Source: an uncultured Pseudomonadales bacterium
GTDB taxonomy: Bacteria; Patescibacteriota; Microgenomatia; UBA1400; PJMF01
DNA: 64,000 nucleotides
Direction of reading: 5' to 3'
Assembly: GCA_964637295.1 (NCBI GenBank)
Contig: CAZWWE010000001.1
Coordinates: 121,808-185,807, forward strand
In this document: positions 4,811 through 62,200 of the stretch, piece after piece
Layout of the letters: each line of letters opens with the position of its first letter
Position numbering within the stretch: position 1 is the first letter of the stretch
Notes under the pieces: generated by a model
What the model saw: the letters and a program-made list of their open reading frames with translations, nothing else
Told to the model about the DNA's origin: nothing
Database searches by the model: none
Translations under genes and position numbers: made by a program

Positions 4811-4845
4811 AAATCCGTCACAAATTTATTTTTCTCTTCGGAAAT

Positions 4846-4913
4846 CACTTGAAGAAATACATTTCTTCAGGCGATTTAAATTCATCAAAAAAATAAATTT
4901 GCTCCTTTCTATA
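4846..4913 (-). promoter_or_regulatory. conserved leader module copy R1 upstream of nusA: TATAGAAAGGAGC box (4900-4913) plus 20-bp palindrome TGAAGAAAT-ac-ATTTCTTCA (4850-4869)
   Basis: Near-identical module is found upstream of groEL (29103-29172) and dnaK (8014-8080). The palindrome ends ~40 nt upstream of the nusA ATG. Confidence 0.45.
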
Positions 4914-6012: not shown

Positions 6013-6040
6013 AGAGGCGCTGGCTGTAGCCAGCGCCTCT
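6013..6040 (-). promoter_or_regulatory. dnaK-dnaJ intercistronic GC-rich hairpin (AGAGGCGCTGGCT-gt-AGCCAGCGCCTCT)
   Basis: Perfect 13-bp inverted repeat between the dnaK stop and dnaJ start; likely mRNA stabiliser/attenuator. The minus-strand downstream sequence is not strongly U-rich. Confidence 0.5.
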
Positions 6041-7986: not shown

Positions 7987-8013
7987 AGCCTCATAAATTA
8001 ATTTTAAGACAGA

Positions 8014-8096
8014 GATGACTTGAATAAATACATTTCTTCACGTCATCAAAATGTCTAAAAAATCAATTTTTTCCTTTCTTTTTCAATTATATTTGT
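8014..8096 (-). promoter_or_regulatory. conserved leader module copy R3 upstream of dnaK: 34-bp palindrome GATGACTTGAATAAATACATTTCTTCACGTCATC (8014-8047), AGGAA box and TATAAT (8085-8096 region)
   Basis: Homologous to the modules upstream of nusA and groEL. The palindrome ends 28 nt upstream of the dnaK ATG. Confidence 0.4.
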
Positions 8097-10392: not shown

Positions 10393-13118
<2,726 letters not shown>

Positions 13119-13122
13119 AAAC

Positions 13123-14640
13123 TCAGGCTTCTTTCTTATAAAAACGAGGACGAGCTATTTTAAAATCTTGATTAAGTTTTTGCAAAGCTGCTTCTCCCGA
13201 AGCTTCAATCTTTGCTCCGGTCAAAAGAGTTTTCATTAAGGTAGCTTGTTTAGTTTTGGCAAAAGCCAAATACTCGCTTTCCCAAGCACCGAGATCGGCA
13301 ATTTCTACTTCATCAAGTAACCCATTGACGGCAGCATGAATAATTAAAACCTGATCGGCTACGGACATTTGTAAATCCCAAGCCTGCTTTAAAATTTCAC
13401 TGACTCTTTTGCCTCGATCTAATTGTTTTTTAGTGGCACTATCCAAATCTGAACTAAATTGGGCAAAAGCCTCTAGTTCTCTAAACTGGGCCAAATCAAG
13501 CTTCAAGCTGCCAGCCACTTGTTTCATTGCCTTCAGCTGAGCAGCTGAACCCACACGAGAAACTGAAAGACCAATGTTGATCGCCGGTCTCATGCCAGCA
13601 TTAAACAAATCAGTTTCCAAATAAATTTGGCCATCGGTAATAGAAATGACATTAGTAGGAATATAAGCTGACACATCATTGGCTTGAGTTTCGATGATGG
13701 GCAAAGCAGTGATTGAACCGCCACCATTCTCTTGATTTAATTTACAAGCACGCTCCAATAAACGAGAGTGTAAATAAAAGACATCACCAGGATAAGCTTC
13801 ACGGCCTGAAGGTCTTTTGAGTAACAAAGAGATTTCTCGATAAGCCTGAGCGTGTTTGCTCAGATCATCAAAAACAATTAAAACGTCTTTGCCTTTTTCG
13901 AGAAAATATTCGGCAATGGCTTGACCAGCATAAGGAGCTAAAAACTGTAAAGAAGCAGCTTCACTAGCTGAAGCGGCAACCACAGTGGTGTATTCCAAAG
14001 CTCCTTTGTCATCTAACACTTGAATAAATTGTGCTAGAGTCGATTTTTTTTGACCAATCGCCACGTAAACACAGATCACATCTTGACCTTTTTGATTTAA
14101 AATCGTGGCCAAAGCGATCGAAGACTTACCAGTATTACGATCGCCAATAATCAATTCTCTTTGACCTCTTCCAATTGGAATTAGGGCATCAATAGCTTTG
14201 ATTCCAGTCTGTAATGGTTGATTAACTGCTTCACGTACAATTACGCCAGGAGCAATTTTTTCCAGGAGCATCGATTTATCTTTTTGAATGGCAGCTTTGC
14301 CATCTTCTACTTGACCAAGTGGATTAACCACTCTACCGATAATCTCTTCTGAAACATCAATGGCTAAAATTTGTTTGCTACGATAAACAAGGTCACCAGT
14401 TTTAATTTGATCTGCACCTGCCAAAACGATAATGCCCACTTTATCTTTTTCCAAGTTAAGAGCTAGGCCAGTTGCTCCTGATTCAAAAGAAACTAACTCA
14501 CCAGCTTGCACATCATTCAATTCATCAGCAAAAACAATGCCATCGGCATAAGCAATCACTTTACCAACTGTCACTGCCTGAAGATTAAGATCTTGGCTTT
14601 TGAGAGTGTTTAAGTGATTAAAAACATCGACTTTTGACAT
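13123..14640 (-). CDS. atpA: F1 ATP synthase alpha subunit
   Basis: 505-aa ORF with GDRNTGKS P-loop. Confidence 0.95.
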
Positions 14641-14642
14641 AT

Positions 14643-14858
14643 TTAAATCTTACTAGCAAGCTGATTTAAACGAGTTTTCAAACTCGCATCATATAATTTA
14701 CCAGCTACACTGAGTTGTAATCCAGCAATCAACTCTGTTTTCAATTGATAATTAAAAAGTAGCTTGTCGCTTGAATATTGATCAGTTAAAGCTTGCTCTA
14801 GCTTCTTTTTTTGTTGATCAGTTAGCTCTACTGCGCTGGCAATATTAACTTGCAACAT
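14643..14858 (-). CDS. atpH: ATP synthase delta (OSCP) subunit, only the C-terminal domain (71 aa)
   Basis: Sequence (…[53 protein letters not shown]) matches the C-terminal part of delta. The ATG sits 2 nt after the atpF stop. An in-frame stop lies 5 codons upstream, so no simple N-terminal extension is possible. Confidence 0.6.
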
Positions 14859-14860
14859 AT

Positions 14861-15346
14861 TTATAAGCTTTCAATAATTTGGTTAATTTGTTGATCAATT
14901 AGTTTTTGATGTTTTTTGGCATCAATAGATTCTTGTAAAACTGTTTCGGCAATCTTGACTGCCGCTTGTTTTAATTCTTGATCCATCATTTTTAATTTTT
15001 CTTTTTTCAATTTGGCCAATTCAGCCGTAAATTTACTTTCTTTCAAAGCTAAATCAGCCTTATTTTGTTCAATTAAAGCTTTGACTGTTTTTTTTGCTTC
15101 AGCCTGAGTTTCGTGTTCGATTTTTTTAGCTGTTTGTTGTGCCTGATCCAAAGTCTCACGTTTAATTTTTTCCAAATTGGCTTTTTCTTGCAAAATTTCA
15201 TTGGAAGCCGCCGCCGCTTGCGCTACTTTCGCCTTGCGCTCATTCAATAATTTCAAAACAGGCTGATAAATGAAACGAGTCAAAACAAACAAAACCAGAC
15301 CAAAATTAATAATCTGAAAAATAATTTGTGCTAATTGTATATCCAT
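14861..15346 (-). CDS. atpF: Fo ATP synthase b subunit
   Basis: 161 aa, N-terminal TM helix plus long charged coiled coil; operon position. Confidence 0.75.
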   Translation of the reverse strand: MDIQLAQIIFQIINFGLVLFVLTRFIYQPVLKLLNERKAKVAQAAAASNEILQEKANLEKIKRETLDQAQQTAKKIEHETQAEAKKTVKALIEQNKADLALKESKFTAELAKLKKEKLKMMDQELKQAAVKIAETVLQESIDAKKHQKLIDQQINQIIESL

Positions 15347-15371
15347 AGATTGATTCCTTTGCTAAAAAGCC

Positions 15372-16642
<1,271 letters not shown>

Positions 16643-16705
16643 TAAGACAAGAGCCGACTTTTTTGCTATGCTTTTTATTAATTAGGCTTTCTCACAAAAC
16701 TAGTT

Positions 16706-18130
16706 ATGAATCAAAACTATCCACTCAATCCTCGACTCCGAAAACAAAGAAAAACTTTGCTTTCTTTTCTGGCTTTGATCTTTTTAATTACTGGCGTGAT
16801 GTTGGGTGCCTGGCAATTAAAAATTGTGCGTGAATTTTTTGGACAAGCCAGTGGTGTTCCTGCCAACTTAATCATTGATACACAGGCTATTTTAGGCCCT
16901 TTGCCTCGACCGTGGCGAAACCTGGCTCAAGGTGGTGAAGATCATAATTGGCGTTTAGATAAACTAAATGGGCCAGTTGCGGCTCTTAAGCCAGAATACA
17001 TTCGTCTCGATCATATTTATGATTTCTACGACATTGTTCAAGGGGGACCAGGCAATTTAACTTTCAATTGGACCAAATTTGACTTGATCATTGATGACAT
17101 TGTTAAAACTGGTGCCACACCCTATGTCGCTTTAAGCTATATGCCGCCAGCCATTTCTTCTGGAGATATTTTGGCCTATCCCACTAATTGGGCTGATTGG
17201 CAATTAGTGGTGCAAAAAACCATTGAACATGTAAGTGGTAGCAAGGGCATTCGTGATGTTTATTATGAAGTTTGGAATGAACCAGATTTGTTTGGTTCAT
17301 TTAAATATTATGGAGAGAAAAACTATCTCACTCTTTATGCCTACGCCAGCGCCGGAGCTAAAAATGCAAGAGGTGTTTTACCATTCAAGTTAGGAGGCCC
17401 AGCTATCACTGCTCTCTACAAAAATTGGTTTGATGCTTGGGCTAAAGCTTGCATTGGCAATAGCTGGCGTTGTGATTTCTTTTCTTGGCATCGCTACAGT
17501 AACGATCTAGATCAGTATGCTGAAGATATGGAATTAGTAAAAAATTGGGTAGCAGCTTACCCACAACTAGAACCCACTTTAGAATTTCATATTACGGAAT
17601 GGGGGCATGATAGCAAAAATCATGCTGGCTATGATTCACAATACGGAGCAGCCCACACCGTAGCTGGCGCAATTGCCATGAGCAATCGCGTGACTAGAGC
17701 TTTTGCCTTCGAAATTCAAGATGGCAAAGACCCTGAAGGCAAAAGCCAATGGGGTCGTTGGGGAATGTTTACGCATAATGATTTTGGGGCAAATAGTAAA
17801 CCGCGTTATCGAGCTCTCAAAATGCTTGACAGCATCGCTGACCAACGCCTACAAATCACTGGCTTGGGTTCTTGGGTTAAAGCCCTAGCTGCCAAAAATG
17901 ATAATGGTGAAACAGAAATTATTATTGCCAATTTTGATGCCAAAGGCGCACACAGTGAAACAGTCCCCCTCACTTTTTTAAATATTGAACCAGGCTCTTA
18001 CACCTTAGACAAAGAATTTTTGGGAGGTAGTAAACAAAATCAGCAACTCGCCACCGATGCCGCTATTTTAAAAACCGAAATTTTTATGCCTATTAATGAA
18101 GTCGCCAAAATAAAATTGATTAAGAATTAA
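16706..18130 (+). CDS. membrane-anchored glycoside hydrolase, clan GH-A (GH39-like)
   Basis: N-terminal TM helix; YYEVWNEPDL (acid/base Glu) and FHITEWGHD (nucleophile Glu) motifs. Confidence 0.55.
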   Translation: MNQNYPLNPRLRKQRKTLLSFLALIFLITGVMLGAWQLKIVREFFGQASGVPANLIIDTQAILGPLPRPWRNLAQGGEDHNWRLDKLNGPVAALKPEYIRLDHIYDFYDIVQGGPGNLTFNWTKFDLIIDDIVKTGATPYVALSYMPPAISSGDILAYPTNWADWQLVVQKTIEHVSGSKGIRDVYYEVWNEPDLFGSFKYYGEKNYLTLYAYASAGAKNARGVLPFKLGGPAITALYKNWFDAWAKACIGNSWRCDFFSWHRYSNDLDQYAEDMELVKNWVAAYPQLEPTLEFHITEWGHDSKNHAGYDSQYGAAHTVAGAIAMSNRVTRAFAFEIQDGKDPEGKSQWGRWGMFTHNDFGANSKPRYRALKMLDSIADQRLQITGLGSWVKALAAKNDNGETEIIIANFDAKGAHSETVPLTFLNIEPGSYTLDKEFLGGSKQNQQLATDAAILKTEIFMPINEVAKIKLIKN

Positions 18131-19271
18131 GCCCCAAGAGAAATTTAATTTTTTTGGCAAACATCAACGGCGCATAAACTTGAGTACATTGATGAATTTT
18201 TAATAAATCGACGCGAAAGTTTTGTTGAAAATTTTTAATCGCCGCTATAAGACTCTCAACGGTTAAATCTTGAAAAAACACACCTGTTTTTCCTGCTTCA
18301 ATAGTTTCTTTGGGTCCTCCAGAAAAATGAGCAATGACCGGCGTGCCAAAAGCCATCGCTTCAATCGGTACCATGCCAAAATCTTCGTCTTCGACAGGAT
18401 AAATTAAAGCCTGAGCATTTTTATAAAGTTCGATTAATTGCTGATCATTGACCGCTCCTAAAAATTCAATTGTTTCGCCAGCTATTTTTTTTAAATTTTC
18501 CAACATCGCTCCTGACCCCACCACTTTGAGAGGAATTTTTAAGTTAGTCGCTGCTTGGACAGCCAATTCTGGATGTTTGGCCAAAGCCAAGCGATTGACA
18601 TAAAGATAATAAGAAGTTGTTTTTTGTTTGGTGAAATCAGCCAATGTTTTTTTATTTAACTGATCAAAAAAAGTTTGAGCACTATCATAGATTTTAATTG
18701 GCGGATTAATGACGACACTTTTTCTTTTATAAAACTTCTGAATTCTAAGCGCTGTTTCTTGAGAGTTAGCAATAAAAAAATCTGGATTTTGTGCTGCTTG
18801 AAAATCCATTTGTCTGACGAAGTGATTGAGCAAATTACCAGCAAAACGAGTGAGTGAATTTGCCTGCCAATTACTTTTAGCACTGTAGCCATACAGCACT
18901 CTCGGCGGAGTATGACAATAACAATAATGCACGCCATTGGGCACTTTCACGGCCTTAGCGAAATAGGCGTTGGAAGAACTAATCACTACATCATATCCAC
19001 TTAAATCAAACTGTTCAAAAGCCCATTTAGCAAAAATGCGCATTGGAGAAAAAAGTTGTTTATAAAAAGGCAAACGAATTAATTTGCTTTGACGAATGTC
19101 CCAATCGGCAAAAATTTGCCAATTTTTTCCCATAGCTTTTGAGTCAACAAAAGCCGTGTAGATCGGGGCTGTCGGAAACATTGCGTGCAAAGCTTCTAAC
19201 ACGCGTTCAGCACCACCGTATTCTCTCAAATAATCGTGAACTAGAGCTATTTTTAAGTTTTTTTTTGCCAT
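18120..19271 (-). CDS. glycosyltransferase family 4 (GT-B)
   Basis: 383 aa with GT4-like N-terminus (LVHDYLREYGGAERV) and a C-terminal E-X7-E-like region. Confidence 0.7.
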   Translation of the reverse strand: MAKKNLKIALVHDYLREYGGAERVLEALHAMFPTAPIYTAFVDSKAMGKNWQIFADWDIRQSKLIRLPFYKQLFSPMRIFAKWAFEQFDLSGYDVVISSSNAYFAKAVKVPNGVHYCYCHTPPRVLYGYSAKSNWQANSLTRFAGNLLNHFVRQMDFQAAQNPDFFIANSQETALRIQKFYKRKSVVINPPIKIYDSAQTFFDQLNKKTLADFTKQKTTSYYLYVNRLALAKHPELAVQAATNLKIPLKVVGSGAMLENLKKIAGETIEFLGAVNDQQLIELYKNAQALIYPVEDEDFGMVPIEAMAFGTPVIAHFSGGPKETIEAGKTGVFFQDLTVESLIAAIKNFQQNFRVDLLKIHQCTQVYAPLMFAKKIKFLLGLNS

Positions 19272-19293
19272 ATTTTATCAATTTGTCACAAGT

Positions 19294-20223
19294 TCAAAAT
19301 AAAGCCTCTTGCACTGAGGTTTCAAAAGCATCTTTAGGTAAAAAATTGATTAAAGATTTAAAATTTAGAGTTTTAAAAATCTCAATTACCTGATTCTTAT
19401 CATAACTTGTTAAACGACAATTCTCTAAATCAAAATCAATTGGTGCTTGGCACTCAATAGTAGCTAGTTCTTTACTCAAAAAAGCTTCCTCTTTACCAGC
19501 TATCAACTTATTTAACAAAGCCCCTTTAATTAAATCGTTACCAGTTGGATTGCTTGCTAAAAATTCATAAATTTTTTCAATCGTGCCAAAGGCTTGAATA
19601 AGAGCAGCAGCGGTTTTTGGACCAACACCTCTCACACCCGGAATATTGTCAGAATTGTCACCCATTAACGCCTTAAGATCAATTACTTGTTTCGGACTTA
19701 TCCCAAGTTTTTTTTCTACCAAGGCCGCATCATATTCAATATCACCTTTTTGTTTACCACGAGCTGGCATCCAAATGTGTGTATCATTATCAACTAACTG
19801 AAAAGCATCTTGATCACCAGTGACAATAATCGTCAATAATTGGCGATCTAAATCTTCAACTTGATGATTAACAGTGCCAATCAGGTCATCAGCTTCAAAA
19901 CCCTCAATCTCAAACTTAGGAATACCAAGAGCGGTAACAACATCTTTGACTAATTGAATTTGTGGAATTAAATCATCGGGCATTTTGGCTCGCTGAGCTT
20001 TATAGCCATCAAATTTTTTATGGCGAAAAGTAGGCTTAGGATGATCAAAACAAACTGCAGCGTACTCAGGTTCAAAATAACTAATCGCCCCCAAGACCAT
20101 TTTACTAAAACCATAGACTGCATTGACCAAATTTCCTGCCGGATCAGTTAAATTGGGAATAGCATAATAAGCACGATAAATCAGAGCATGAGCATCAACT
20201 AAAAGAAATTTTTTACGGGACAT
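19294..20223 (-). CDS. stand-alone 5'-3' exonuclease (FEN/Pol I N-terminal domain)
   Basis: LLVDAHALIYRAYYAIPNL…, H3TH motif (…NIPGVRGVGPKTAAALI…); probable start MSRKK at ~20223 rather than the track start at 20295. Confidence 0.8.
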   Translation of the reverse strand: MSRKKFLLVDAHALIYRAYYAIPNLTDPAGNLVNAVYGFSKMVLGAISYFEPEYAAVCFDHPKPTFRHKKFDGYKAQRAKMPDDLIPQIQLVKDVVTALGIPKFEIEGFEADDLIGTVNHQVEDLDRQLLTIIVTGDQDAFQLVDNDTHIWMPARGKQKGDIEYDAALVEKKLGISPKQVIDLKALMGDNSDNIPGVRGVGPKTAAALIQAFGTIEKIYEFLASNPTGNDLIKGALLNKLIAGKEEAFLSKELATIECQAPIDFDLENCRLTSYDKNQVIEIFKTLNFKSLINFLPKDAFETSVQEALF

Positions 20224-20242
20224 AATTGATGATTTCCCGCCA

Positions 20243-22156
20243 TTATATCGCTTTGGCTTTGGGCATGTCCATGAGTTTGGCAAACTCATCTGCATCTAAA
20301 GTTTCTTTTTCCAATAAATTTTCAGCAATTTTATCGAGTTTGGCACGGTATTTGGTTAATAAGGCTGCAGCCTTACTTTCTGCTTGACGAACATAGCTCA
20401 TCATTTCTTCATCTACTTGCTCTAAAACCTTAGTGGAAGGCTTATCTGCTTCACCCCAAGCTCGACTATAATCTTCCCCTTCGTATTGAGGTCCAAAGTT
20501 CATGGGACCTAATTTGCTCATGCCAAAACGCACCACCATATTGCGAGCAATTCTAGTCACTCGATCAATATCATTACTAGCACCGGCAGTTTGCTCATTA
20601 AAAATCAGCATTTCGGCAGCCCTACCGCCTAGCATCACGGTCATGTCATCAAGCAATTCAGATTTCAAAATTTGCAATTTATCTTTTTCTGGAGGAGTAA
20701 AGGTGTAACCCAAGGCCTGGCCTCTGGAAACAATTGAGATGCGATGCACTGGATCAGCATAAGGCAAAATGTGAGCCAAAACTGCATGACCCGCTTCGTG
20801 ATAAGCCGTCATTTTTTTCTCTTTTTCATCTTGCAAACGTTTTTTGCTCGGTCCATATTTCACTTTCAAAGATGCCTCTTCAATATCCTCCAAAGTAATT
20901 TCTTCGCGACTTTCTCTAGCTATAGCAATAGCTGCTTCATTAAGCATATTTTCTAAATCTGCTCCAGAAAAACCCACTGTGCGCTTGGCCACTTTTTCCC
21001 AATCCAAATCTTTGCTGAAAGTTTTATTTTTAGCGTGAATATTTAAAATAAACTTACGTTCTTCTAGATCTGGCAAATTAACTTGCACGCGACGATCAAA
21101 GCGACCAGGACGAACTAGGGCTGGATCGAGCATATCTCCTCGATTGGTGGCGGCCATCACAATGACGTTGTCATTTTGCGTAAAACCATCCATCTCGACT
21201 AAAATTTGATTAAGAGTTTGTTCACGCTCATCATGAGAAGACATACTGTTGCGACTGCGCATACGACCAATCGCATCAATTTCATCAATGAAAATAATTG
21301 ATGGAGCAATCTTTTTAGCCGTATCAAATAAATCTCTCACACGAGAAGCTCCTACACCTACCAACATTTCCATGAATTCACTTCCAGCAATGGAAAGAAA
21401 TTGCACCCCAGCTTCACCAGCTACAGCTCTAGCTAATAAAGTTTTACCCGTTCCAGCTGGACCAACTAATAATACTCCTTTGGGAGTACGTGCTCCGACT
21501 TTGGTATATTTTTTGGGGTTTTTTAAAAAATCGACAATTTCTTCGAGTTCTTTTTTGGCTTCATTCATGCCACCAACATCTTTGAAAGAAATATTTTGTT
21601 TACCTTTGACAAAAACTTTAGCTTTGCTTTTACCCATACCAAACATGGCGTCAGTACCACCTCGAGCTTGTCTAAAAACAAACATTAAAAGCACAAACAT
21701 TAAAATAATTGGCAAGAAATTGATCACCAATTCCCAAAGCATTTGCATAAAAGTAGCATCATGAATTTCTGTATCTACTTTTGTTAAATCAATGTTGGCC
21801 GAATCGAGCACTTCCAAAACTTTTTGACCTTCTTCTTTTTTGGCCACTTTTTTAGCATTGTCTTTATAAGTTAAGCGCAGTTCTTGGCCATAGACCTCCA
21901 TTTTGGCCACTTTTTCATCTCTAATATCTGTCACCATTTGACTGATGGTGATCTGCTCACGACCGCGATTACCGCCAAAAGCACCTAAAAGTGAAGGGAC
22001 AAATAAAAATAAAATAATTAAATAAATCAGGGTTTTGTTGAAAAATTTATTTAAATTAATTCTTAGCTCCACGCGCTTATATGTTCCATTCTGCTTGGGA
22101 GTTTTTGGCTCAGCTTTCTTAGGATTTTTTTCATTTTGATCGTTCATAAAAGTCAA
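20243..22156 (-). CDS. ftsH: ATP-dependent zinc metalloprotease FtsH
   Basis: TM anchors, AAA Walker A (GPAGTGKT), SRH, HEAGHA zinc-binding motif. Track start is TTG; an internal ATG lies ~3 codons downstream. Confidence 0.92.
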
Positions 22157-27438: not shown

Positions 27439-29079
<1,641 letters not shown>

Positions 29080-29102
29080 TCACGATTTATTTTTTTCATC
29101 AG

Positions 29103-29172
29103 CGATCTCTTGAAGAGATATATCTCTTCAGGTGATCGAAGTTCTTCAAAAAATTAATCGCTCCTTTCTATA
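29103..29172 (-). promoter_or_regulatory. conserved leader module copy R2 between groES and groEL: 36-bp palindrome CGATCTCTTGAAGAGATA|TATCTCTTCAGGTGATCG (29103-29138) and TATAGAAAGGAGCG box (29159-29172)
   Basis: Homologous to the modules upstream of nusA (4846-4913) and dnaK (8014-8096). The palindrome ends 33 nt upstream of the groEL ATG. Confidence 0.45.
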
Positions 29173-49732: not shown

Positions 49733-50263
49733 ATGTGGAAAAAGAAAAGCTGGCCAAAATTTAATTTATTTCAAAAAATTTTTGCTAATCAAAAAATCGC
49801 CTTGTTGATCAGTTCTTTGGACAAATTCTTTATTAAATTACCTCACTTGCCTAAAAAACTCAGGCTACTGATCAGCCGTTTTGTGCCTTTCTTAGCCTTG
49901 ATTTTCGGTTTAATTGGCCTAGTAGCGAGCATATTGGCTGGTTCTTTTGTCGTTCTGGGCTTGCTCGCCGGCGAATGGGGCTTTTTAGCTGAAAATGCCT
50001 TCAACTTTGGGATAACTTTGCTAAGCGCCCTCCTGCTACTAAAATCTTTCAAACCGCTGCGGGCGGGCAACGCTGTGGGTTGGATTTATCTTTTTTGGTC
50101 AGAAATTTTGGAAGTCATCAACTTGATCGTGCGCACCATCAATCAAGAAAGTGGTTTGATTTGGAATTTAGTCATAATCATCTTGAGTTTTTACTGCTTA
50201 TTTGAAATTGGACAATTCTACGTGTATAAGAAAGAGAAGGAAAAAGGATTAAATACAATTTGA
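49733..50263 (+). CDS. hypothetical membrane protein (3-4 TM)
   Basis: 176-aa ORF convergent with and overlapping the 3' end of the giant gene. Confidence 0.35.
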   Translation: MWKKKSWPKFNLFQKIFANQKIALLISSLDKFFIKLPHLPKKLRLLISRFVPFLALIFGLIGLVASILAGSFVVLGLLAGEWGFLAENAFNFGITLLSALLLLKSFKPLRAGNAVGWIYLFWSEILEVINLIVRTINQESGLIWNLVIIILSFYCLFEIGQFYVYKKEKEKGLNTI

Positions 50264-53200
50264 TTCTTAAGTTTTTCATATAAAGAATTTAGAAGTATTT
50301 CTTCATCATTTAAGTTATCACTATTTGTTTCAAATGATTCTAGACCAAAAACATCTAGTCCAATACTTTCTAAAAAGCTCTTACCATCATAGATTGTTTT
50401 TTCTGTGCCGTTTATATAGTCACTTAGATGATCATTTCCTATTCTTAACAACATTCTGTTTATAGCAGCCATGTTTTTTACAAATAATCTCATATTCAAA
50501 GGAAATTCTAGCTTAAGTCTATCTGTTTCTTGCATCATGGCATTAAAAAATGAAATTTGTGAATTACTATCTGTATCGCGTTTGATTAGCTTTTCTTTAA
50601 GAGCAACTCTTAAATACGAAGCGTAGGCTTTCCAATAATTAAATAGTCCACTTTTTCTAACTTGATTACTGTTTAATAGATATCTTGTCAAATTAACAAA
50701 TTTATGAAAATCAGTTTCTTGATTAGACAAGAGAATTTTTATTAAATCAACTTCTTCTTGAGAAAGAACTAAATAATAACTTCTGTCGATAACTGAAACA
50801 TTGGATAAGGCTTCATCGGCCATAATATTTCCAATATGCAAATCAGAGTGCAAAATATAAGCTGTTTTACCATCTGCCAAGGTAACAGGGTAATTGAGAT
50901 GTTTGACATAATCGGTAACGATATCAGAAATCAATTCTTCAATACGCTTCGCTCTCTCATTATCCTGATTATTCACATGATGGTTTTCGCTAATTAATTC
51001 ATTTTCAAAATTTGCAATTAGATTTTTTAAAGTATCGCCCTCAACATAATCTTCAATTTTAATCCAACGGTTATAAATTTCGTGCTTGTTTGAAGTATTG
51101 AAAGTAAAACCAAACCTCGATTGATGTGGATATAATTGATTAAACAGGATGTCATTCGAGATAAAATTTTTATCTTGTATGTCTTCAGTATTCCATTGCT
51201 CTAGAGTATTAATTAATCTTTGAACAACTTCGTAATTTTTCTTATTACTTTTATCTAACTTCTGCAAATCATTGACAACTGACTCCACTAAAGTTCTCGT
51301 TTCTGCTACATCTATAATCACATTGGGATTACTGATTTTAAGAACTTTCATAGTTATCTCATCGTTCGTTGGATTGAGAATTTCCACTAGATAAGTTGTA
51401 TTAATTGATCCACCTCCAATTTTTTTAATGATTCTGATATTGGGTAATAATTCTTTGAGCTGCTTTGCTTGCGCCAAATTATAATCAATTTCTTCTTGAG
51501 AAGCTGCATTAGCTGGATTTTGTAAGGAATCAATGGCTGTTTCTGCACTTTGAAATAAATTCGCCATATATAAATTTGAGGCATTATCATAAACACTTAA
51601 AAATTCTTGCTGCAACTCTTTTGGTAAATCAAAATATTGACCAAATACTTGCAAAAACCGCACTCCCAAGCTGCCCAAGCTTTTAGCCAATTCAACAATG
51701 AATTGACCGGTCTGAATCTTACCGTTATTGCTTAAGTTTTGAATTGGCTCTCTTTTAATACCAAACTTTTTTAAACTTCTAAGAGCAATATTCTCAAATT
51801 GAGCGTTGAGATCAAAGACAAACTGATAATTACTGTTTTTGTTTATAACAATATTTTTATCTTGATTGAATAAATTTGTTAGCATTTTTCTAACTTTTTC
51901 TCGATAGTCCTCTGCAACGTCTGATGGCAAATTTTCACTGATTATTGTTTCAACTGCATAATTATTACTGACCGCTCTAGGATTTCCCTGCAAAAAACTA
52001 TCAGCTAGGGCTCTAGAAATACCCAATTCAATGCGCGTTGAACCTTCAACCTGGGATAAAGTTGAGCTAATAATATTTTTTAAAAGAGGTTTTAAATTTA
52101 ATTCTTCAGAATCTTCAAGCTGATCAGTTAAAAATGTAGCTATTTTGAGATGATTATCCTCATTCAATAGTAATTTTTCAGATAGCAATTTGGCAATAAA
52201 AGCTGTTTTTTCTAATTTTGATAAATTATAGAAACTCGCCACAAATTCCTCAAAAGTTGGAAAAGACGTTAATCCTGGACCAGACAAGTTGCCATTTTCA
52301 TCAACAAAAACGCTTGTTTTTTTGTGAATTAAGTAACTCGCTATTATAGAAAAAGCTTGCAAACTGCCGGAGTCTCTATCATAAGTTAATAGCGATGAAT
52401 AATATTTTGCTAAATAGTATTTAACTTTTTCGTGATCTCCTTTTATTGAGGCTTCAAAAAATCCGAGTAAATCTGTCTCATTCATATTAGTAATATAGTT
52501 TGAAACTAGAGTATCAACAGCAACTGTTCTGTCTAAACTCTTTTGCTCCGACCCCAAACTTTGATTTAAACTCTGATCTTCAGAAATAATTTTATATTCC
52601 TCAAAAGTTTTGACATGACTTTCTAAGAAAAAATGTATGTATTGATTATGTCCATTTTCTAAAGATTGTTTGAGAAAATCATACGCCTCATTAAAAGGTA
52701 ACTCTTGAAAGAGCTTAATCGCAATTTCTTCAAGAATTTGATTTTTAGTTTGCAATGAAGGGAAATTTTTTTCAAGAAAATTATACAAATCAACTCCTTG
52801 TAAATTTTTGGATTTTTCTTCAACAAACTTTAATTCATAGCTGATCAAGGGTTTTAATAAATTTGCTTCAACTTCATTGGTTCCAAAATAATATTCTTCA
52901 CCAGCTGTTCGATCTATGGCCGAAGCATAACGTCCGTTAGCTAATTCAAAAAACCATCTTAATTGAGTCGATACAGAAAAATTTATTGTTTCAGGAGCAA
53001 AATGAATACCTGGTCGAAAACCACTAATGTCTTGATTGATATCAGAAATATTTAAAGTGTTTAAATAGTTTTGCAATTCTTGGATGATCGTAAAATTACT
53101 AAACAAAGAAAAATTTTTATTAGACAATGGAGTATTTTTGCAAGCTTCTCTGATTTCATCAAAATATTCAGCTAAAATCTGCCATTCTTTGTCGTAAATT

Positions 53201-56200
53201 AGACTTTTTAGATAATCTAGGTACTGATCCTGAAGTTGCCTGTTTAGATCCAAAAAGGCTTGATCTATATTCGTTTGATCATCGAAATCCGACAACAAAA
53301 ACGAGTTCTTAAAAAAAGTAAGAATAAAATGTTGAGCCAAGATAAAACTATTGGATTCAATGTCTGCTTCACCTGAAAAAATTTGTTTAAAATTATTTTC
53401 ATTTAAAGCGAACTTAACTAATAAATTATTTAAAAAAACTCGATCTTCTAATTCTAGAAAGCTATGATTTAAGAAATCACTTAGTGTATCAACATCAAAT
53501 CTTGTGACTGGTTTATTTTTTGTAAAAATTGTTAATATTTTTTGATTAAATTCTTGAATTTTTATCTCTTGCTCTGGTTGATTAAGCTTAGAAACTCCTT
53601 TATAAGCAGAGAGGTCAATGTAGGTGTCAGTATCGTCATTTCTTTTTTCATTAAGATCGAGTTTCTTTTTAATATAATTAAAATATTCTTCTCTTTTTTT
53701 TAATTCACTATATTTAAAATTATTATTCGAATATTCTAAAATTTGATCTTTAGACCAATTTGGGTTTTGTAGCATTAAATTTATCAATCTGTCCAAATAT
53801 GGTTCTGGATCTAAATCATTTAATCGAATTTCGCTTATCAAGCGATCTTGAAGATCAAGAGATAATGAGTACAAGTGATAGCTTATTGAATGTGCATAAG
53901 CTTGCTTGCCCAGATTTAGACCGCCTGCGAACTGAATAATTAATGGAAATTCTTTTTCTACATCATCGAACAAATCGGATATAGTTTTCCTCAGATTTTT
54001 ATTTTTTAAAAACTCTCTGCGACTTGATAATTGAAAATCAAGAATTGATTGTGGCTTCAAGACTAAATCCGGCTTATTCTTTTCAAGAAGACTTGACCAA
54101 GGATCTTTATTTAACAGTTCCTCATAATATTGGCTATTTAAGTCGGCGTCACTTGGTTTTAGTTTGTTAACTAGATTTCTAGTTTTAAAAAATAATGGCG
54201 AGATAGAAAAATATAATTTGTCATAATCAAAGAGAAAATTAAAATGGAATGCTTCAAAAAAAAGATCTACATGATTATATAAATCGCCAAATCTATCTGT
54301 AGAACTATAGGAAGAAATCCAAAGCAATTTTATCCCTTTGAGTTGATCAGTGTTTACATGAAGATCTCTAAGTAAGTAATCGAATTTTTTGAACTCTTGA
54401 TCAATTATTTCAAGAGTTTGCTGAAATAGAATTGTATTGTAAAGCTTTTGCCAAAAACCAATACTCTTTTTCGATGAATTGTTTATATAATCTTTAGTAT
54501 TACTGACTCTTTTTCTAAAATCAGGAACAAAATTTTCGTAGTATTGTTTTTTAATGCTTGGATTGGCAGCAGAATACAGCCCTTCCCAAACTGCATTTTT
54601 TTTCGAATTGCTTAATTCATAGATAAAACCAAAATTAGTAGCTTTCTTCCACGAAAAAGGCATTGCGGTCGGTCTAATATTTTCTGCAATACCTAATTCT
54701 TGAAAATTAAAGGCTACTTCTAAATTTATGTTTCTATTAAATAAAGAGCCATGATCTAAATCAGAAATTATTTTGAATTTACTCATATTAAAGAGCTGAA
54801 CACCTCTATTACCCCAAAAAGATTTTTTGGCGGTTCTATTATCCGAATAACTACCAATAATTTCTGCGGCTCCCTGAAATGCTTTTGGTTGATACCCTAA
54901 TCTGCCCAACCTGAGCAAAGATGTTCTATCAGCTTTGTATTCTTGTGCTCTACCACTAGTTAATTCAGATAGCATGTCGTTCCAATTCAAAAAATTATCC
55001 TCAAAGTGAGAAAATTCATGAACTAAAATGGCAAACAATTGATCTTTAGTTTCTAATGCATTAATTAAGCCCTGATTAACAACTAAAGAACCATCAGGCA
55101 AAGCAAAAGCATTTAATCCTTGATTAAGAGATACATAAACCTTTGCCTTTGGCAAAGGTTCTTTACCAGCTTCTGCTCTTTCTTGATTAATTAAGTCTGC
55201 TAATTGGTCGACAAAGGTTTGGATATCTCTTACCATTTCATCATCTGTGCTTAAAAATCGAGTGTTGTAATGCTCAGCATTTAAAATATTCCTAATTTCC
55301 TCTAAAACTTCTTCTTTACTTCTCTGCCAATTTCCTTGTATGTGATCAGTGCTATTCAAAGCTATTTCTTGAGAAAGGGGAATTAAATTCATTTTTTTAT
55401 CTAAATCTAACACTGATGTAATGTATGAATTTAATTTTGAGTTTCTTTCTTCTTGATTAAAGTTTTGAGTAAAACCACGCTTTAGCAAAACACTAGCATC
55501 TGTTTTTAATATTCTAGCTTGATCAAAAAAAGTAAAAAATGAAAATCGTCTGCTAATTACATTCTTTATTCCCTGTAATACTCCGCCAATAAGTTTATTG
55601 CGGTTTAGTTTGCCAGCCTTTTCTTCAAATTCAGCCATTTGCTTGAGACCAACAATTGCTGCTGCTTGATTACCTTCTAGAAGATCATTAACATCAGAGA
55701 TTTCTTGCGGAGTCAAATTGAGAGTTTCTGTTTGACGACCAATGCTTAAAAAGCCGGGTTTAGTTACTATGGTCATTTGTTTACTTGCTAGAATTTGCTT
55801 CGCAATGAGAGTGGCTTGATAGACAGAAGTGATGGCACGAGTTGTATCTGCTTTAGTTTGTCTAATCTCTGCTTCTTTAGTATCGACCCAAGCATTGAGG
55901 TAAAGCTGAACACACTGGTTTTGCATACCGTGTGAATTGACCACTTGAAGCCTGGTATCACTGAGTTGTTTAAGGGCTGCTTGTTTCTTATCTGCTGCTT
56001 GCTGAGTAAGAGTTTGCGCTTGCTTCAGATCCCCAGCAGTTTCAGCCTCACCAACTTGCACAAGCAGAGCTTCTGCTTCTTGCATCAGGGCATTCGCCTT
56101 TTCTACTCCAGCTTGGGTATCTAAGCGCACTTGATTGCAATCGGAGCAGAGGGAGGAAAAATCGAGTAAATTTGATTCAGGGCTATCTGTTTGCAAAGAT

Positions 56201-59200
56201 TGATATTCAACATTGATGGAATTAAGGGCTGATCTAAATCTGTTCTCAGTTTCAGTAAAAGAAGGATTGTCAGTTAAATTTACTTCAATAAGGTGATTGA
56301 GCAAATAATCTTTATACCTAATTTCTAACAATATCTTTTTCTTTAATTCTTGAAATTTCAATAAATCAACAGTTTGGATTCCTGCTTCGTTTAAAATTAT
56401 TGGCAAAGATAAATCTTGTCCAGTGAAATAACTAAAATTACCCATTTCATTTTCAAATAATTGACTCAATAAATCGTTAAGCTCTTGTTGATATTCATTT
56501 ATTTCCTTATCAAAAGAAAATTTAGCGGCAGTCTTTTTAAAAGCAATAGAAAAAATTATTTTGCGTAAATCCTGCGAAGATGTAATTTCTGGAGGCAAAT
56601 CATTTTTATAAATTCTAAACAACATTTCTAATTCATGTTTCAAATTTTCAATATCTGAGTCTCTAATTTCAGAAACTGCTGAGTTTTTGACATAATCAAT
56701 AAAGATTTTATTTTGAGAAGACAGATGACTAATGATTTTCTTTAAAACTATTGCGACATCCTGCCATTTTTTTGGCTGACCAGGTATTGATTTTGCTACT
56801 TCTATATAAATACTTAATTCATCAATAGCACTGAACGCTTGTAGCAAATTAATGCTACTGGGTAAATCCTTTTCCATTTGTAATTGAGGAATTACTTTAT
56901 CAAAATCATTCAAATTGATAACTAATTTTTCATCTTTATCAACCTCTAATGCAAGTAGGGTGTTAAAAAAAGGAGCTCTCTGCTGCAATCTTCTTTGTAA
57001 TTCAGCGAATACATCTTTAAATAAAAGAGTGGCAAAATCTGATGGAGTATCGTGAATAATTCTTAGAAATTCAGTTGAACCATATTTTGCTTCAATTTTT
57101 TCTCCTAAAACCATGCCTAAGGCATAGGGTCTTAAATATGAGAGATTAATTGAGGCAGCTCTATTTACATAGTTACTAAAAATTGAAAAATCTATAGCAC
57201 CAATCAATTGATTGCTTTGGCCTTGTTTTTTCAGGCCGTTAGAAAATGTTTGGAGAAACCTCGCGCTTGCTCTTTCTCCTCCCATTTCTCCAATAAAAGT
57301 TGATAAATTTCTTTCTGTTTCGTAAGTAAAATGGTCATTTTCCTTCAATATTTGAGTTAAACTAGATATTGAATCAGAATCAAATCTGGAACTGTCAAAA
57401 ATATAATCCAAAACTTCATTAGTGTTTTGTTCTGTTCGTCTAGGCTTGGCAAGCCTATCAACTGCATGATCAACTTCATGAGTAATTGTCGTAATGCAAT
57501 CAAACAAAGACCTGCGATTTAGCTTGTTATTAATAAAAATGGGATGTAAGGTATCATTATCTTTTATTGGCTGAGCATATGCATTGGCAGACTCTTCAAA
57601 AACACTACTAATAATTGGAACGGTTACTTCTTTGCCATTTTTTTTGATTAAGATAGTCGCAATTGGCAAATCTCGACTTAAAGATAAAAATCTTGACAGC
57701 TGTTGTTCATCGGTTAAAATGGTGGCAATATCAGCTATTTGTTGATCACTTAGTCTTTCAACAGAAATTCTAATGATTTCTACCGATTCTTGATAAATTT
57801 CTTTAAAATATTCTTCTAAACTGGCAGCCGCTCCGGCTTGATTGAAAAAGATTTTTGCTTGCGGATCTAATAGTTTATTTATTAAAACCTGTTGCAATTC
57901 AATAGAAACATCCTGTTTTTTAATAGAATCCATTAAATTGGAAATTGCATATTGTATATCTGGATATAAAGATTTAGCACGAAAGATAAATTCTCGCTCG
58001 ATGAAATAAGGTAGGGAAGAAATTTTTTTCGCATTAATTTCATACGAACCATCTGTTAAAATCGTTGCTAAACCTGCTTTAACTAATGAATCAAGATAAT
58101 TTTTTGCAAAATCTAAATTAGAAGAAGTGTCATTAGTTATTAAATCTAAAAGTTGTTTCGGAGATCTGATTTTTTCCTCCGTCTGATCAAATAATTGATC
58201 CGCTTCTCCAACACCTAAATCAGAAACAAGTTGATCTTCTTGGCTTAATTCCTCAAAATTAAGCCAAATATTAATCATTGTTTCTTTTACACTACTAACG
58301 GTTGCTTGCCCCAATTTGATTCCAAATAAATTGCTTTTTAATTCTTTTTCTTCTGTAGAAAAATACATTTGAGCCAATTCTGAAGTACCAATAACTGGAT
58401 TTTTCCCATCTTCTCTGCTGGTGGCTGTTAACAACAGCAATAATCTAATTACTTCAGATTTATAATTAACTGTAATATGTTCACTTAAAAGTTCTTGAAG
58501 TAGCTCTTGTTCGCTCAATCCTTCGTGCTTAACAGTTAGTGCTAGTAATTGAGCAGTTCCTTCATTGAGATAATGATGAAAAACAACGCGATTCGTATTT
58601 TCATATTCGAATCCGCCAAGAGCTAGGGTTTTAATTAATTCTGATGTAACAATGAAATTAACATCTAATTGAGCTGCCTTTTTTTTGTTAATTAAAATTT
58701 CGGTATGTTCAAGAAAATCCAATCTGACATAGCCAAAACTATTAAATTGCTCATTAAGAGCACTGGAAAAAGATTCAATACTATTTTCGTCTTCGATACC
58801 TTTTTCTACTAACCAAGTTAATATTTTATGCGATAGTTGTTGTGAATTTGCCAAGACCGCCTTAGATTTACTTGCTCGCATAATTCCTTCATCTGAAGCA
58901 GAAAACTTATCAAGTAAAACAGATCTGATTTCATCAATCTCAATTATTTCTAGATTTTCGTCCTCATCGGAGTTAACATTCTGACTCAAATTTTCTTCAA
59001 GAATAGGATCAATTTTTTGAGCGTTGACACTTTGAGAGTTTTCAATATGCCTAGCAATTTGCTCTAATTCCTCTAGAGTTAAGGTTTCTAAAGGATCAGC
59101 AATTAACAAGGCTTGACCAGAATTTGTTTGCCATTCACCAATCACATTAATCAACTCAGTTTTGCGTTGTTTTTCAGCAACAAGTCTAGCCGATTCGTGC

Positions 59201-62200
59201 AAAATTTTTTGCAACTCAGCCAGCAAATTTTCCACTTGCTCCGCAGAATTAAGTAGCGAAGCTAAGGGTAAAGAAAGAGAGCTGGCCAAAGTTGCGCCAA
59301 GCCCTTCGATTTCAGTTTGATTAATGAATTGTTTAGTTTTAAAGACATTTATTACTAGTCTAATAAATTCTTGGCCAACATCTTTGCCCGAAGTTAACAA
59401 GTCAGATAAGTTCTGCAACGAGTCACTATCAAAACTAAAGCCAGCGGCTTGTAAAGATTTAATTAATTCCAACAAAGTTCTTCGCTTATTTAAGAGATCG
59501 TCAGTTTGAGCAAGTAGAGTGGTTTGATTTGTTAATGCTTGTTCTAAAATTGCCAGCTGAGCTTCTATGCGCTTTTGCTCCTGATCAGCGACCAATTGTT
59601 GAGCAATCCTTTTTTTAACACGATCGATAAAGGTTTCAGTTGTTTTTAAATTTAAATCCAAATCTTTCAATTGAAGAGTAGAATCAATTTGTTCTTGTTC
59701 CAATGTTTCACTTTGCTGCCTTAACCGGGTAAGTTTTTGAGCGGCTTCAGCCGAGAGTTGAGTTTTGCTCTCTTGGTTTGGAGACAAAGGCAAAATACTC
59801 AAGGCTGGGAGATCAGCTACTGGCTGATTTTCTTGCAGTTTTACTACTAATTGAGCAGCTGGAGTTTTGTGAGTAAAAAATCTTCCTCGATTTTGCCCAC
59901 TGTTTTTTACTTTTGCGTAAAATTCTGATAAACCGCCATCAATGTTACTTACTCTTGAATCTTTAGGCTGCTCATTTTCAGAATGACCATGGACAATCTG
60001 AGTAGCAGATAAAACCCTAAGCAGGTTATCCACGGTTGGCGTGTTCAGTCTTCCTCTATCGCTCAAATCCTCCATTAATCTTCTAAAATTACCAAAACCA
60101 TCTTTGCCACTTACAATTAGTTTAACCTTATCATTGATCGCGCTCACACTTTTTCCAAGTTTTAAGTATTTATCTGTATCACTGTGCATATAAAGCACTC
60201 CGTCAACAATTGTCACTACATCTAAGCTCATTAGCCATTCGGCAAGTTGGGGATAATTGAGTAAAAACAATAATTCATCATTGGTAATTCCAGGACTCAT
60301 GCCAGTAGAACTTGCCAGATCAACTAAATTAGCTAGACTTGCATTAGGTCTACTTTTTTGAAAATTAAAAAATCTATGATAGGCAAAAAGAGCATTAATG
60401 TCATGATTGCCCAGTAAAACTTTAATTCGAGGAGTTCCATCGGCAAAATTACCAGCTTCTCGAACTAAGTTCATAATTTTTAAGGCAGTTTCAACACTAT
60501 TTACACCTTTTGGACCACGACCTATCAGATCACCCGTTAAAATTAACTGATCATTCTCTCCACCAATCCACTTGCCTTTTTTGTCAAGTAAAGCCGTAGG
60601 CAGTTTGTGTCCGTTTTCATCTTTTGTTTGACCGCTAAGTAATCTTAGCAAGGCATTCCAATCACCATGAACATCACCAATTGCTGTCACGTTCCGTACT
60701 TGAGCTTCATTATTTTGAGTGGAGATTTGCAGCTGTGCAGCAGATAAATGTCGACCGGCAAACCACTGCCAATTGGTTAGAGATGAGAAAATTTGTTGAG
60801 TGTAAGCTTGGACATTTTGGGGATCATTGGAGAAAGCTGGGTCTCTTGCTAAAGCACTACTAACATTAGCAGGTTTTATAAGCTGATTAACAGCATATTT
60901 TATCCATTCAACCATTTCACTTCTAAGCTGAGCTTCATTCAAGTGATTTATTTGTTGTTCTTGAATAAGTCGTTTCAACCCTTTCTTTATTTGAAAGTCA
61001 ATTATGGCGACATTAGCTTCAAGTATTTTTTCTGCTACTTGAGCCTGCTTTTCTTGGGAACTTTGTAGCTGATTTTGCTCAATTAAGTTTTTTATTTGCT
61101 GATCGATTGAAGCTAATTCTGCTGCTATTCTTGACAGATCTGCTGACTTTTGAGCAATCCTCGTATCAAGTTGCTTTTTCCATTCTTCATTTCTTTCTAA
61201 AATTTCATTAAGAGTAGCGATTTCAACTTTTTGTTGTTTCAGGTTATCAAGCTCAATGGTTAAATCGCTGATGGCTGCCTTAATTGAACTAATTTGATCA
61301 GTGATTTGTCGACGACCAGTTAAGAGCGCCTCGAGTGAATAGGCTATTGGGTCTATTGTCAAATCTATTGAATCACTAGCCAGAATCTCTTCTATTGCTG
61401 GTTCAACTGCTGGTTGTTCTATTGCTGGCTCTATTGCTGGCTCTATTGCTGGCTCTATTGCTGGCTCTATTGCTGGCTCTACTGACTGCTCTACAATTGG
61501 CTCATTGATTACTTTTATTTCTTCAATGAATTCTTCTAAAGAATAAATTAGATTTACTGATCCATCAGCATCAGTTTTAGCCTGAGCAATCACTATCAAT
61601 TTAATCTGATTATTAGGATCACTTAAGGCAATTATGTCCCCTTCTCTAAGAGGATACTTTTGTTGAGAAGGAATTCTTTGGTCATTAACATAAGTCCCGT
61701 TAGTACTGCCCACATCTATAATAAATGGACGTCCATTTTCAATGATAAACTGAGCATGGTTTCTAGAAACTTGTGAATTATTAATAATAATGTCATTTAA
61801 ATCATTTCTACCCAAATTAATTATTACTTCTGAAACTGGCTCTGAAAATCCATATTGTTTAATCAACTCTACTTGACGTTTAAAAATTTGTTGACTTGTT
61901 TCAGATCCGAAAAATGAATTAAGTAAATATTCAATAGCCTTACGATTACTGATTGGTTCTCTAGATCCAACTTGAGCTAATTGTGAATGATAGAAATCAA
62001 CAACTTCATACAAGTTTGCGCTGAGCTGATAAATATCTTTAAATGTTGGTAAAAACTTATCGCCTGTAACATCAATCATGGCTTGCACCAATAATAAGCC
62101 AGAAAAATATGACCATTCATAAACACCCAGATTACTTTTGTTGGGTAAGATTGCATCTAAAAGAGTATCGGTCAACGGACTTTGAACTGATTTTGCACTT

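Follow-up and report, generated by a model that had tools for sequence, protein, structure and literature searches.

A low-copy palindromic element placed between Shine-Dalgarno sequence and start codon in the groEL, dnaK and nusA leaders of a Patescibacteria lineage: a predicted hairpin-split ribosome-binding site

The 64-kb stretch of DNA analysed here (the window) carries on its minus strand the genes hrcA-grpE-dnaK-dnaJ-nusA-infB together with groES-groEL, and Pfam confirmed the identities of NusA, GroEL, DnaK, GroES, GrpE, HrcA, DnaJ and IF2. The nearest named relatives of its GroEL and NusA belong to metagenome-assembled genomes (MAGs) of "Pacebacteria" and "Woesebacteria", and the organism is a Patescibacteria/Microgenomates bacterium. 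We studied a hairpin-forming element present in the nusA, groEL and dnaK leaders of the window and compared it with stretches from other assemblies and relatives (labels with L, such as L121). The copy at groEL recurred in independent assemblies of the same organism (L001-L006), one of them with a loop variant, and is therefore no assembly artefact.

An earlier note on this DNA had described a 13-mer box and a palindrome in the three leaders, and this description was borne out. The exact 13-mer, TATAGAAAGGAGC, was found on the minus strand at 4913-4901 (nusA leader) and 29172-29160 (groES-groEL spacer) and nowhere else in the window; in its place, the dnaK leader carries TATAAT (8091-8086) and GAAAGGAA (8078-8071). 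Near-perfect palindromes lie at 4842-4877 in the nusA leader (17-nt arms) and at 29103-29138 in the groEL leader (18-nt arms), with a dnaK version at 8047-8014. Their core, TGAAGARAT, is over-represented: the window holds 11 matches, where 3.8 were expected, and none of 100 shuffles reached this count. The palindromic arrangement of the core is confined within the window to these three sites.

The leaders also hold a T-run and TTGA 5′ of the palindrome, and an A-rich motif 3′ of it that continues into GTGACG (AAAAATAAAT-GTGACG). These had been listed as motifs in their own right, a division that did not survive folding of the leaders. The T-run pairs with AAAAATAAAT, and T-run, TTGA, palindrome and A-rich motif therefore form the arms of one predicted stem-loop of 75-83 nt. 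From base to tip, it comprises an outer A/U-rich stem of ∼14 bp, usually clamped at its base by G-C pairs, a purine-rich middle section, an inner stem of 7 bp with a conserved C.A mismatch, and an apical stem of 8 bp with a tetraloop. Predicted folds of the hairpin copies ranged from -19.5 to -31.9 kcal/mol, with 25-32 pairs. Covariance models found exactly three copies in the 64 kb, with E of 1e-15 to 1e-19. The three leaders have a homologous module in common, as the note had it. No Rfam family matched the element at gathering or relaxed thresholds: the best matches in the leaders scored 8-24 bits against gathering scores of 39-100, and the only Rfam matches in the window were two tRNAs.

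At groEL, the window reads in order GAAAGGAG, an 80-nt hairpin, 11 nt and ATG, and the groES-groEL spacer measures 118 nt, as against 22-34 nt in four relatives whose site is empty, that is, devoid of the hairpin (L119, L111, L112 and L113, with GroEL 96%, 93%, 86% and 83% identical to that of the window, respectively). These empty sites hold AAAGGAA, AAGGAGG or AAAGGAG, then 4-7 nt, then ATG. The dnaK site is empty in L121 (NusA 91% identical), with AAGGAAGGA 6 nt 5′ of ATG. The nusA site is empty in the same relative, with GAAAGA 5 nt 5′ of ATG, and also in L127, L128 and L122; hairpin-less relatives carry GAAAGA or AGGAA 4-5 nt 5′ of ATG at this gene. Because empty orthologous sites at three loci hold the same Shine-Dalgarno (SD) sequence 4-7 nt from ATG, the GAAAGGAG box is the ordinary SD of the gene, its ancestral ribosome-binding element, displaced by the insertion of a hairpin of ∼80 nt. 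The earlier note had taken AGGAG to lie too far from the start codon for a ribosome-binding site (RBS), a judgement that these empty sites reverse. In filled sites, the SD is invariant while the adjacent upstream A/T-rich sequence drifts (as in copies preceding rplK in L095, L117 and L118, described below), which argues that the SD is still in use. The features at the three loci are as follows.

4902-4909, minus strand: GAAAGGAG, SD of nusA and core of the 13-mer at 4913-4901, identified by sequence; TATAGAAAGGA stands likewise 5′ of nusA in L124.
4820-4902, minus strand: predicted nusA-leader hairpin, 83 nt, including the palindrome at 4842-4877, identified by fold and model matches.
4811-4819, minus strand: nusA spacer GACGGATTT, 9 nt, from hairpin base to ATG (4810-4808).
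29161-29168, minus strand: GAAAGGAG, SD of groEL and core of the 13-mer at 29172-29160, identified by comparison of orthologous spacers.
29082-29161, minus strand: predicted groES-groEL spacer hairpin, 80 nt, canonical type, including the palindrome at 29103-29138, identified by fold and model matches.
29071-29081, minus strand: groEL spacer GACGCACAATT, 11 nt, from hairpin base to ATG (29070-29068).
8072-8078, minus strand: SD of dnaK, GAAAGGA, 7 nt 3′ of TATAAT (8091-8086).
7995-8069, minus strand: predicted dnaK-leader hairpin, 75 nt, diverged type, including the palindrome at 8047-8014, identified by fold and model matches.
7987-7994, minus strand: dnaK spacer ATGAGGCT, 8 nt, from hairpin base to ATG (7986-7984).

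The nusA hairpin, with its outer A/U stem (T-run/AAAAATAAAT), internal purine-rich section, inner stem and 8-bp apical stem with tetraloop, was predicted to fold at -26.5 kcal/mol with 31 pairs (z -4.4 in leader context) and matched the models at 79-82 bits (E about 1e-16). The corresponding values were -24.6 kcal/mol, 28 pairs and 94-96 bits (E about 1e-19 to 1e-20) for the groEL hairpin, and -21.8 kcal/mol and 75-77 bits for the dnaK hairpin. At nusA, the last hairpin base, U4820, and the first three spacer bases spell YGAC, which is able to pair with GGAG of the SD. The dnaK spacer of the window has GAGG where GACG is usual, creating a second, proximal SD-like tetramer.

An SD-like tetramer was found at the starts of 7 of the 45 open reading frames (ORFs) of the window, and SD-led genes are thus the exception in this genome. 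Many of the 45 ORFs have a TAnnnT hexamer, often after TGn, 6-8 nt 5′ of the ATG, a placement which suggests that leaderless mRNAs are widespread.

The apparent internal loop of the canonical copies lies in register, as G.A, A.G, A-U, G.A, A.G, A-U (5′-GAAGAA against 5′-UGAUGA). In L117, the A-U between two tandem G.A pairs is changed to G-C, and the dnaK copies have a Watson-Crick stem, AGACA/UGUCU, in place of the G.A section. Across the main alignment of 11 copies (a 10-copy version was also computed), 79.5% of cells were paired and 16 of 36 pairs had changed on both sides; none of 500 shuffles reached the observed values, and every slid register scored far lower. In these comparisons, it is the pairing of the element that is conserved, and not its sequence.

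Two likenesses were considered and rejected. A kink-turn had seemed conceivable for the internal loop (GAA bulge plus tandem G.A, with UGAUGA/CUGA resembling box C/D), and the double change in L117 fits an in-register helix instead. In the canonical copy, GAUCACCU looks like the 3′ end of 16S rRNA, a likeness taken as coincidence since the other copies do not conserve it.

Orthologous sites were filled in some relatives other than those already named as empty. At groEL, the site is occupied in the window and in L120 (GroEL 94% identical, groEL gene 84% in nucleotides), whose groES-groEL spacer holds a hairpin of the same layout with entirely different inner stems, CGAGTAAA-CGTC-TTTACTCG; the models still matched it, with E of 2e-9 (R1) and 1.4e-14 (R2). 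At nusA, it is occupied in the window and in L124 (NusA 88% identical), and at dnaK in the window, L124 and L114. L124 carries variants before both dnaK (E 1.6e-5) and nusA (E 0.008, after TATAGAAAGGA), and L114 holds the orthologue of the window dnaK copy, at 86% identity. On two further contigs, the grpE-dnaK spacers measure 133 and 154 nt, lengths which suggest filled dnaK sites. Among relatives with comparable protein identities, occupied sites are interspersed with empty ones.

Exact-pattern scans of genome and metagenome collections detected the canonical core in only one other lineage, represented by MAG CAZFIY01 and contig Ga0228535_1000003. Copies there lie between nusG and rplK, directly after GAAAGGAGC and 7 nt 5′ of the ATG (L095/L115, L117, L118). 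A single copy, which lacks both SD and ATG, is 3′ intergenic and is flanked by a small ORF and a convergent dnaB (L094/L116). The core-palindrome scan of the genome collection returned 104 stretches, of which only L094 and L095 were real, the others being chance matches in coding DNA. Scans of viral contigs for the element found nothing. Only two canonical copies were matched on one 841-kb contig, and full models found, in ∼190 kb of relatives' DNA, no copy beyond those given here by label; a weak match at L111 16453-16525 proved to be an unrelated hairpin. The copy number of the element is low. The MAG carrying the rplK and dnaB-3′ copies (L094/L095, L115/L116) has 37% G+C and Patescibacteria-like genes and is labelled uncultured Pseudomonadales bacterium, a label which is probably wrong.

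These distributions bear on the functions first proposed for the palindrome. According to the earlier note, it could be an operator through which a second regulator acts on the chaperone and nusA operons, TATAGA being a possible -10 hexamer, or else an RNA hairpin; the element has also to be considered as an RNA thermometer of heat-shock genes. It does precede groEL and dnaK, as do the inverted repeats or hairpins of CIRCE/HrcA, HAIR/HspR, ROSE and fourU, and it is a good palindrome with some likeness to CTTGA...TCAAG half-sites. At orthologous sites, however, the core is replaced with pairing kept (L120, L124); of the two options, the RNA hairpin is the better one. The site is also missing in close relatives that retain HrcA and CIRCE-like sites, and the paired region spans about 80 nt. 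A regulon operator is not supported: beyond the window, the palindrome stands before rplK and in a 3′ untranslated region (UTR), and it is absent from the same leaders in close relatives. Neither operator consensus was matched. The core reads TGAAGARAT-N2/4-ATYTCTTCA, as opposed to TTAGCACTC-N9-GAGTGCTAA for CIRCE, and shares with HAIR (CTTGAGT-N7-ACTCAAG) only CTTGA...TCAAG, at a different spacing and in a sequence that L120 and L124 have replaced. The element is indeed distinct from the CIRCE-like sites, as first described: a separate HrcA-type repeat, ACTAGCAGTC-N10-GTCTGCTAAAAT, lies at about 8143-8113 on the minus strand, just 3′ of the grpE stop and upstream of the dnaK TATAAT and SD, and is conserved in L121 and L124. 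TATAGA fared no better as a -10 hexamer. It lacks the final T, and a promoter scan found no sigma-70-like site that uses it; groEL is internal to the groES-groEL operon, and a conserved TATAAT promoter with a terminator lies further upstream of nusA.

As for a thermometer, which is a marginally stable hairpin hiding SD or AUG, the predicted stability of -20 to -32 kcal/mol is far too high for physiological melting. Unlike ROSE and fourU elements, the hairpin excludes the start codon, ending 6-11 nt before the AUG, which is modelled as largely unpaired in 6 of 10 leaders. The element is, moreover, not limited to heat-shock genes, since it stands before rplK and nusA. We regard an operator or thermometer as extremely unlikely; nothing found here speaks for a second heat-shock regulator, and this false lead is removed.

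Slightly less improbable, and still very unlikely, is an upstream ORF or leader peptide, in which the SD would drive a short TTG ORF starting 11-13 nt downstream and running through the hairpin, thereby unfolding it and coupling translation to the main ORF. Canonical copies do contain such a frame (TTG...TGA, 16 aa, MKNFDHLK[KR][CY]ISSRDR), and the nusA copy has one of 20 codons. As a conserved feature, however, it is absent from the dnaK, L120 and L124 variants: the dnaK copies offer nothing longer than 3-codon ORFs, and L120 lacks any ATG, GTG or TTG at a distance that could serve. The SD-to-TTG spacing is long, 15-32 nt separate the upstream stop from the main AUG and no SD is nearby, and substitutions preserve pairing, not peptide.

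How the element came to occupy these sites was addressed by comparing copies across loci. Over its inner 60 nt, the window groEL copy shows 90-93% identity with copies at rplK and dnaB-3′ in another genome, but only 56% with the L120 copy at the same site and 68-76% with the dnaK and nusA copies of the window. Likeness across loci, divergence at the same site and patchy occupancy therefore mean transposition, lateral replacement or gene conversion, and not to simple vertical descent at each locus. The element thus behaves as a small, low-copy palindromic unit that moves or gets replaced, in the manner of miniature inverted-repeat transposable elements (MITEs). At all five occupied loci, it lies in the sense orientation of the transcribed gene.

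Small palindromic repeats are familiar from other bacteria, among them the Correia elements of Neisseria, enterobacterial ERIC, Rickettsia RPE, mycobacterial MIRU, repetitive extragenic palindromic (REP) sequences and MITEs. The present element resembles MITEs and REPs as a short hairpin repeat (these measure about 80-150 nt) in transcribed intergenic regions, co-transcribed with its neighbours, patchily present among relatives and with copies at unrelated loci more alike than the loci themselves. It differs from them in its very low copy number, in outer stems that vary and yet remain self-complementary, and in its unusually precise placement in the SD-AUG spacer. Inspection of filled sites revealed no consistent direct repeat at the junctions that would mark a target-site duplication, there being no close filled/empty pair to fix the exact boundary; fixed terminal inverted repeats were not found, the outer arms differing between copies; and the Pfam-annotated genes of the window include no transposase or RAYT, apart from a conserved Xer-type integrase. 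Membership of the MITE/REP class is therefore not established.

The element might nonetheless be a selfish, neutral palindromic insertion of MITE/REP kind, the genes being translated without the displaced SD and the hairpin merely persisting. Patchy presence and absence among close relatives would be expected of such an insertion, as would near-identical cores at unrelated loci of different genomes, including a 3′ intergenic copy with neither SD nor ATG, and the scarcity of SDs among the 45 ORFs fits with genes that can do without one. Neutrality accords poorly, on the other hand, with the very low copy number (3 in 64 kb, 2 canonical on the 841-kb contig) and with the lack of terminal inverted repeats with target duplication and of any transposase seen. 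Four of the five occupied loci are SD-ATG gaps of a few nucleotides, which would call for strong target specificity or selection, and both the SD and the short 3′ spacer are conserved in filled sites. We judge neutral insertion to be somewhat unlikely, and the strongest of the competing explanations.

The placement of the hairpin was examined in ten gene-proximal copies, at four genes (groEL, dnaK, nusA and rplK) in at least six genomes. The distance from SD to AUG is 85-91 nt. On the 5′ side, the first paired base is the last SD base or lies no more than 2 nt from the SD, and on the 3′ side the hairpin ends 6-11 nt 5′ of the AUG. If the hairpin is folded, the remaining spacing amounts to 0-2 nt plus 6-11 nt, which falls in the functional window when the width of the helix is left uncounted. 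A conserved (G/A/C)YGACG 3′ of the hairpin, in which the GTGACG motif is included, can extend the helix onto GGAG of the SD through G-Y, A.G, G.A and G-C. In the leaders of nusA and rplK, the modelled probability of an unpaired AUG was low (0.04-0.30), the stem there being extended to include it.

We propose that the groEL, dnaK and nusA leaders contain a hairpin-split RBS, a reading whose chances of being right and wrong we see as about balanced. The mRNA hairpin would fold as a rigid rod and be looped out of the RBS, so that, for a 30S subunit anchored on the SD, the AUG would effectively lie ∼6-13 nt away, as in a split or discontinuous RBS. In this way, highly expressed genes with an SD, in a mostly SD-less genome, would tolerate the element and might even exploit it, and it might tune expression through stability, processing or partial masking of the SD by its YGAC partner. 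The lasting conservation of the SD, the G-C clamp closing the base of the A/U stem and the narrow 3′ gap all agree with this arrangement.

Such an arrangement has precedents. In bacteriophage T4 genes 38 and 25, a hairpin cuts the SD-AUG spacing from 22 to 5 nt and from 27 to 11 nt, respectively, and mutations that destabilise the hairpin lower initiation (PMC3014915). The likeness lies in an SD and AUG too far apart in the linear sequence, in an intervening RNA hairpin that restores a functional spacing (here predicted), and in the origin of the arrangement within a subclade of related genomes. The differences lie in size (75-83 nt here, about 15-20 nt in T4), in the genes concerned, which are here essential cellular genes of a Patescibacteria lineage (groEL, dnaK, nusA and rplK), and in the existence here of a multi-copy family of related sequence with turnover between loci. 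A cellular precedent for a long hairpin is the split RBS of Escherichia coli thrS, where the hairpin is accommodated by the ribosome and not unfolded (PMC3936740). In both cases, a long hairpin of a cellular mRNA separates two parts of the binding site of the ribosome. In thrS, however, SD and AUG are adjacent and the hairpin sets them apart from an upstream single-stranded binding region, and it also serves as operator for the synthetase, whereas the present hairpin parts the SD from the AUG.

Several points weigh against a looped-out hairpin in a split RBS. The mechanism is deduced from geometry, and the same geometry arises automatically if any element inserts into an SD-ATG spacer of 4-7 nt. 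The hairpin is ∼4 times longer than those of T4 and, once the width of the helix is counted, the effective spacing comes to ∼10-15 nt equivalents, at the upper edge of the working range in E. coli. Since most genes of this genome have no SD, initiation might not need the displaced one. In the modelled pairing, the first and last G of the SD can join the downstream YGAC, and the SD could be masked in this way rather than presented. It is also not settled by thermodynamics that RNA, and not DNA, is the selected form: folding energies of sense and antisense strands showed no consistent difference, and template-switch repair of quasi-palindromes could mimic compensatory change. The only strand-specific signal is an excess of purine-purine over pyrimidine-pyrimidine combinations at non-canonical positions of the sense strand (58 against 7), a weak one given the shared descent of the canonical copies. 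Lastly, the analysis turned up neither a target-site duplication nor a transposase or other mobilising function.

The long, nearly continuous duplex also lends itself to another explanation. An element of RNA processing or stability would use the ∼30-bp helix as a site for RNase III or a similar enzyme, or as a 5′/3′ stabiliser, and might uncouple groEL from groES, dnaK from grpE and rplK from nusG. The duplex, with its 25-32 pairs, is of the kind that RNase III-type enzymes use (about 20 bp or more of near-continuous double-stranded RNA), and the element occupies spacers inside operons and, in one case, a 3′ UTR flanked by convergent genes. The upstream SD would perhaps act as a stabiliser similar to STAB-SD: GAAAGGAG matches the STAB-SD of Bacillus thuringiensis cryIIIA, GAAAGGAGG, and GAAAGGAG(G) is in both cases an SD-like sequence far upstream of the start codon (about 100 nt there, ∼90 nt here). 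The empty sites show, however, that the SD is the normal RBS of the gene in relatives, pushed off by the insertion, and probably not a dedicated 5′-terminal stabiliser. Cleavage of the stem would cut the conserved SD from its ORF and leave the conservation of the SD unexplained, and nothing in the window bears on nucleases. We consider this explanation unlikely, behind neutral insertion and ahead of the leader peptide.

A more ambitious version of the split RBS would make the hairpin a lineage-specific, transferable device for translation initiation, working with the SD, including closure through the GGAG/YGAC tandem G.A pairs, to set or regulate initiation on the most highly expressed SD-led genes of a Patescibacteria lineage whose mRNAs are otherwise largely leaderless and devoid of an SD; the hairpin would then be no mere parasite. 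We advance it only tentatively, as doubtful and hardly better placed than neutral insertion. With moderate confidence, and with its function predicted, we describe the finding as an unusually large, multi-gene variant of the hairpin-split RBS, carried on a low-copy palindromic family in a Patescibacteria lineage.

If the hairpin does loop out, the 30S subunit would bridge an 80-nt rod between SD and AUG on essential mRNAs, and what has been a curiosity of two T4 genes would extend to cellular genomes. Were it in addition a device, cellular genes would gain their first described hairpin-split SD-AUG site, one that far exceeds all others in size. The element would also show how compact Patescibacteria genomes absorb or recruit palindromes inserted where a gene is most sensitive. 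If neutral, it would still provide a clean natural experiment on the tolerance of an RBS to disruption. For annotation, the consequence is that RBS scoring by linear distance calls such genes "SD-less", and start codons may be mis-set or spurious leader ORFs predicted.

Other features were noted around the occupied loci. The dnaJ-nusA spacer holds, at 5071-5014 on the minus strand, TATAAT, AGAGGAGG, a hairpin (GGACTGTTGAAAGACAAGTCC) and a T7 run, overlapped by a 17-codon TTG ORF. Almost every base of this unit is kept in L121, L124 and L127/L128, and its layout is kept in L122. The unit probably represents the promoter of nusA-infB together with a terminator or attenuator in the leader, possibly serving NusA autoregulation. 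A second long hairpin, at 5008-4933 on the minus strand, lies directly 5′ of the nusA SD (-18.6 kcal/mol, z -4.65). It is specific to the window genome and absent from L121, and its sequence is unrelated to the studied element; long hairpin insertions seem to be common in the nusA leader. A perfect 13-bp G+C-rich inverted repeat, AGAGGCGCTGGCT/AGCCAGCGCCTCT, with no clear T-run after it, extends over 6013-6040 between the dnaK stop and the dnaJ start, and may be an intra-operon attenuator or stabiliser.

The GroES of the window (29539-29189, minus strand, 116 aa) contains a cysteine-rich insert, EDCACSCSCECDCECEDQKSGQQSCK, in a segment that is hypervariable: the GroES proteins of close relatives range in length from 100 to 141 aa. 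A giant ORF of at least 4587 aa occupies 50218-63981 on the minus strand, with 19 nt of the window upstream of it, and its true start may lie beyond the window. Finally, L120 carries 3′ of groEL, at 12080-21632, genes for a serine recombinase (Resolvase) and for HTH, Macro and Bro-N proteins that are absent from the window and from the other relatives, a block which looks like an integrated mobile element or prophage remnant.

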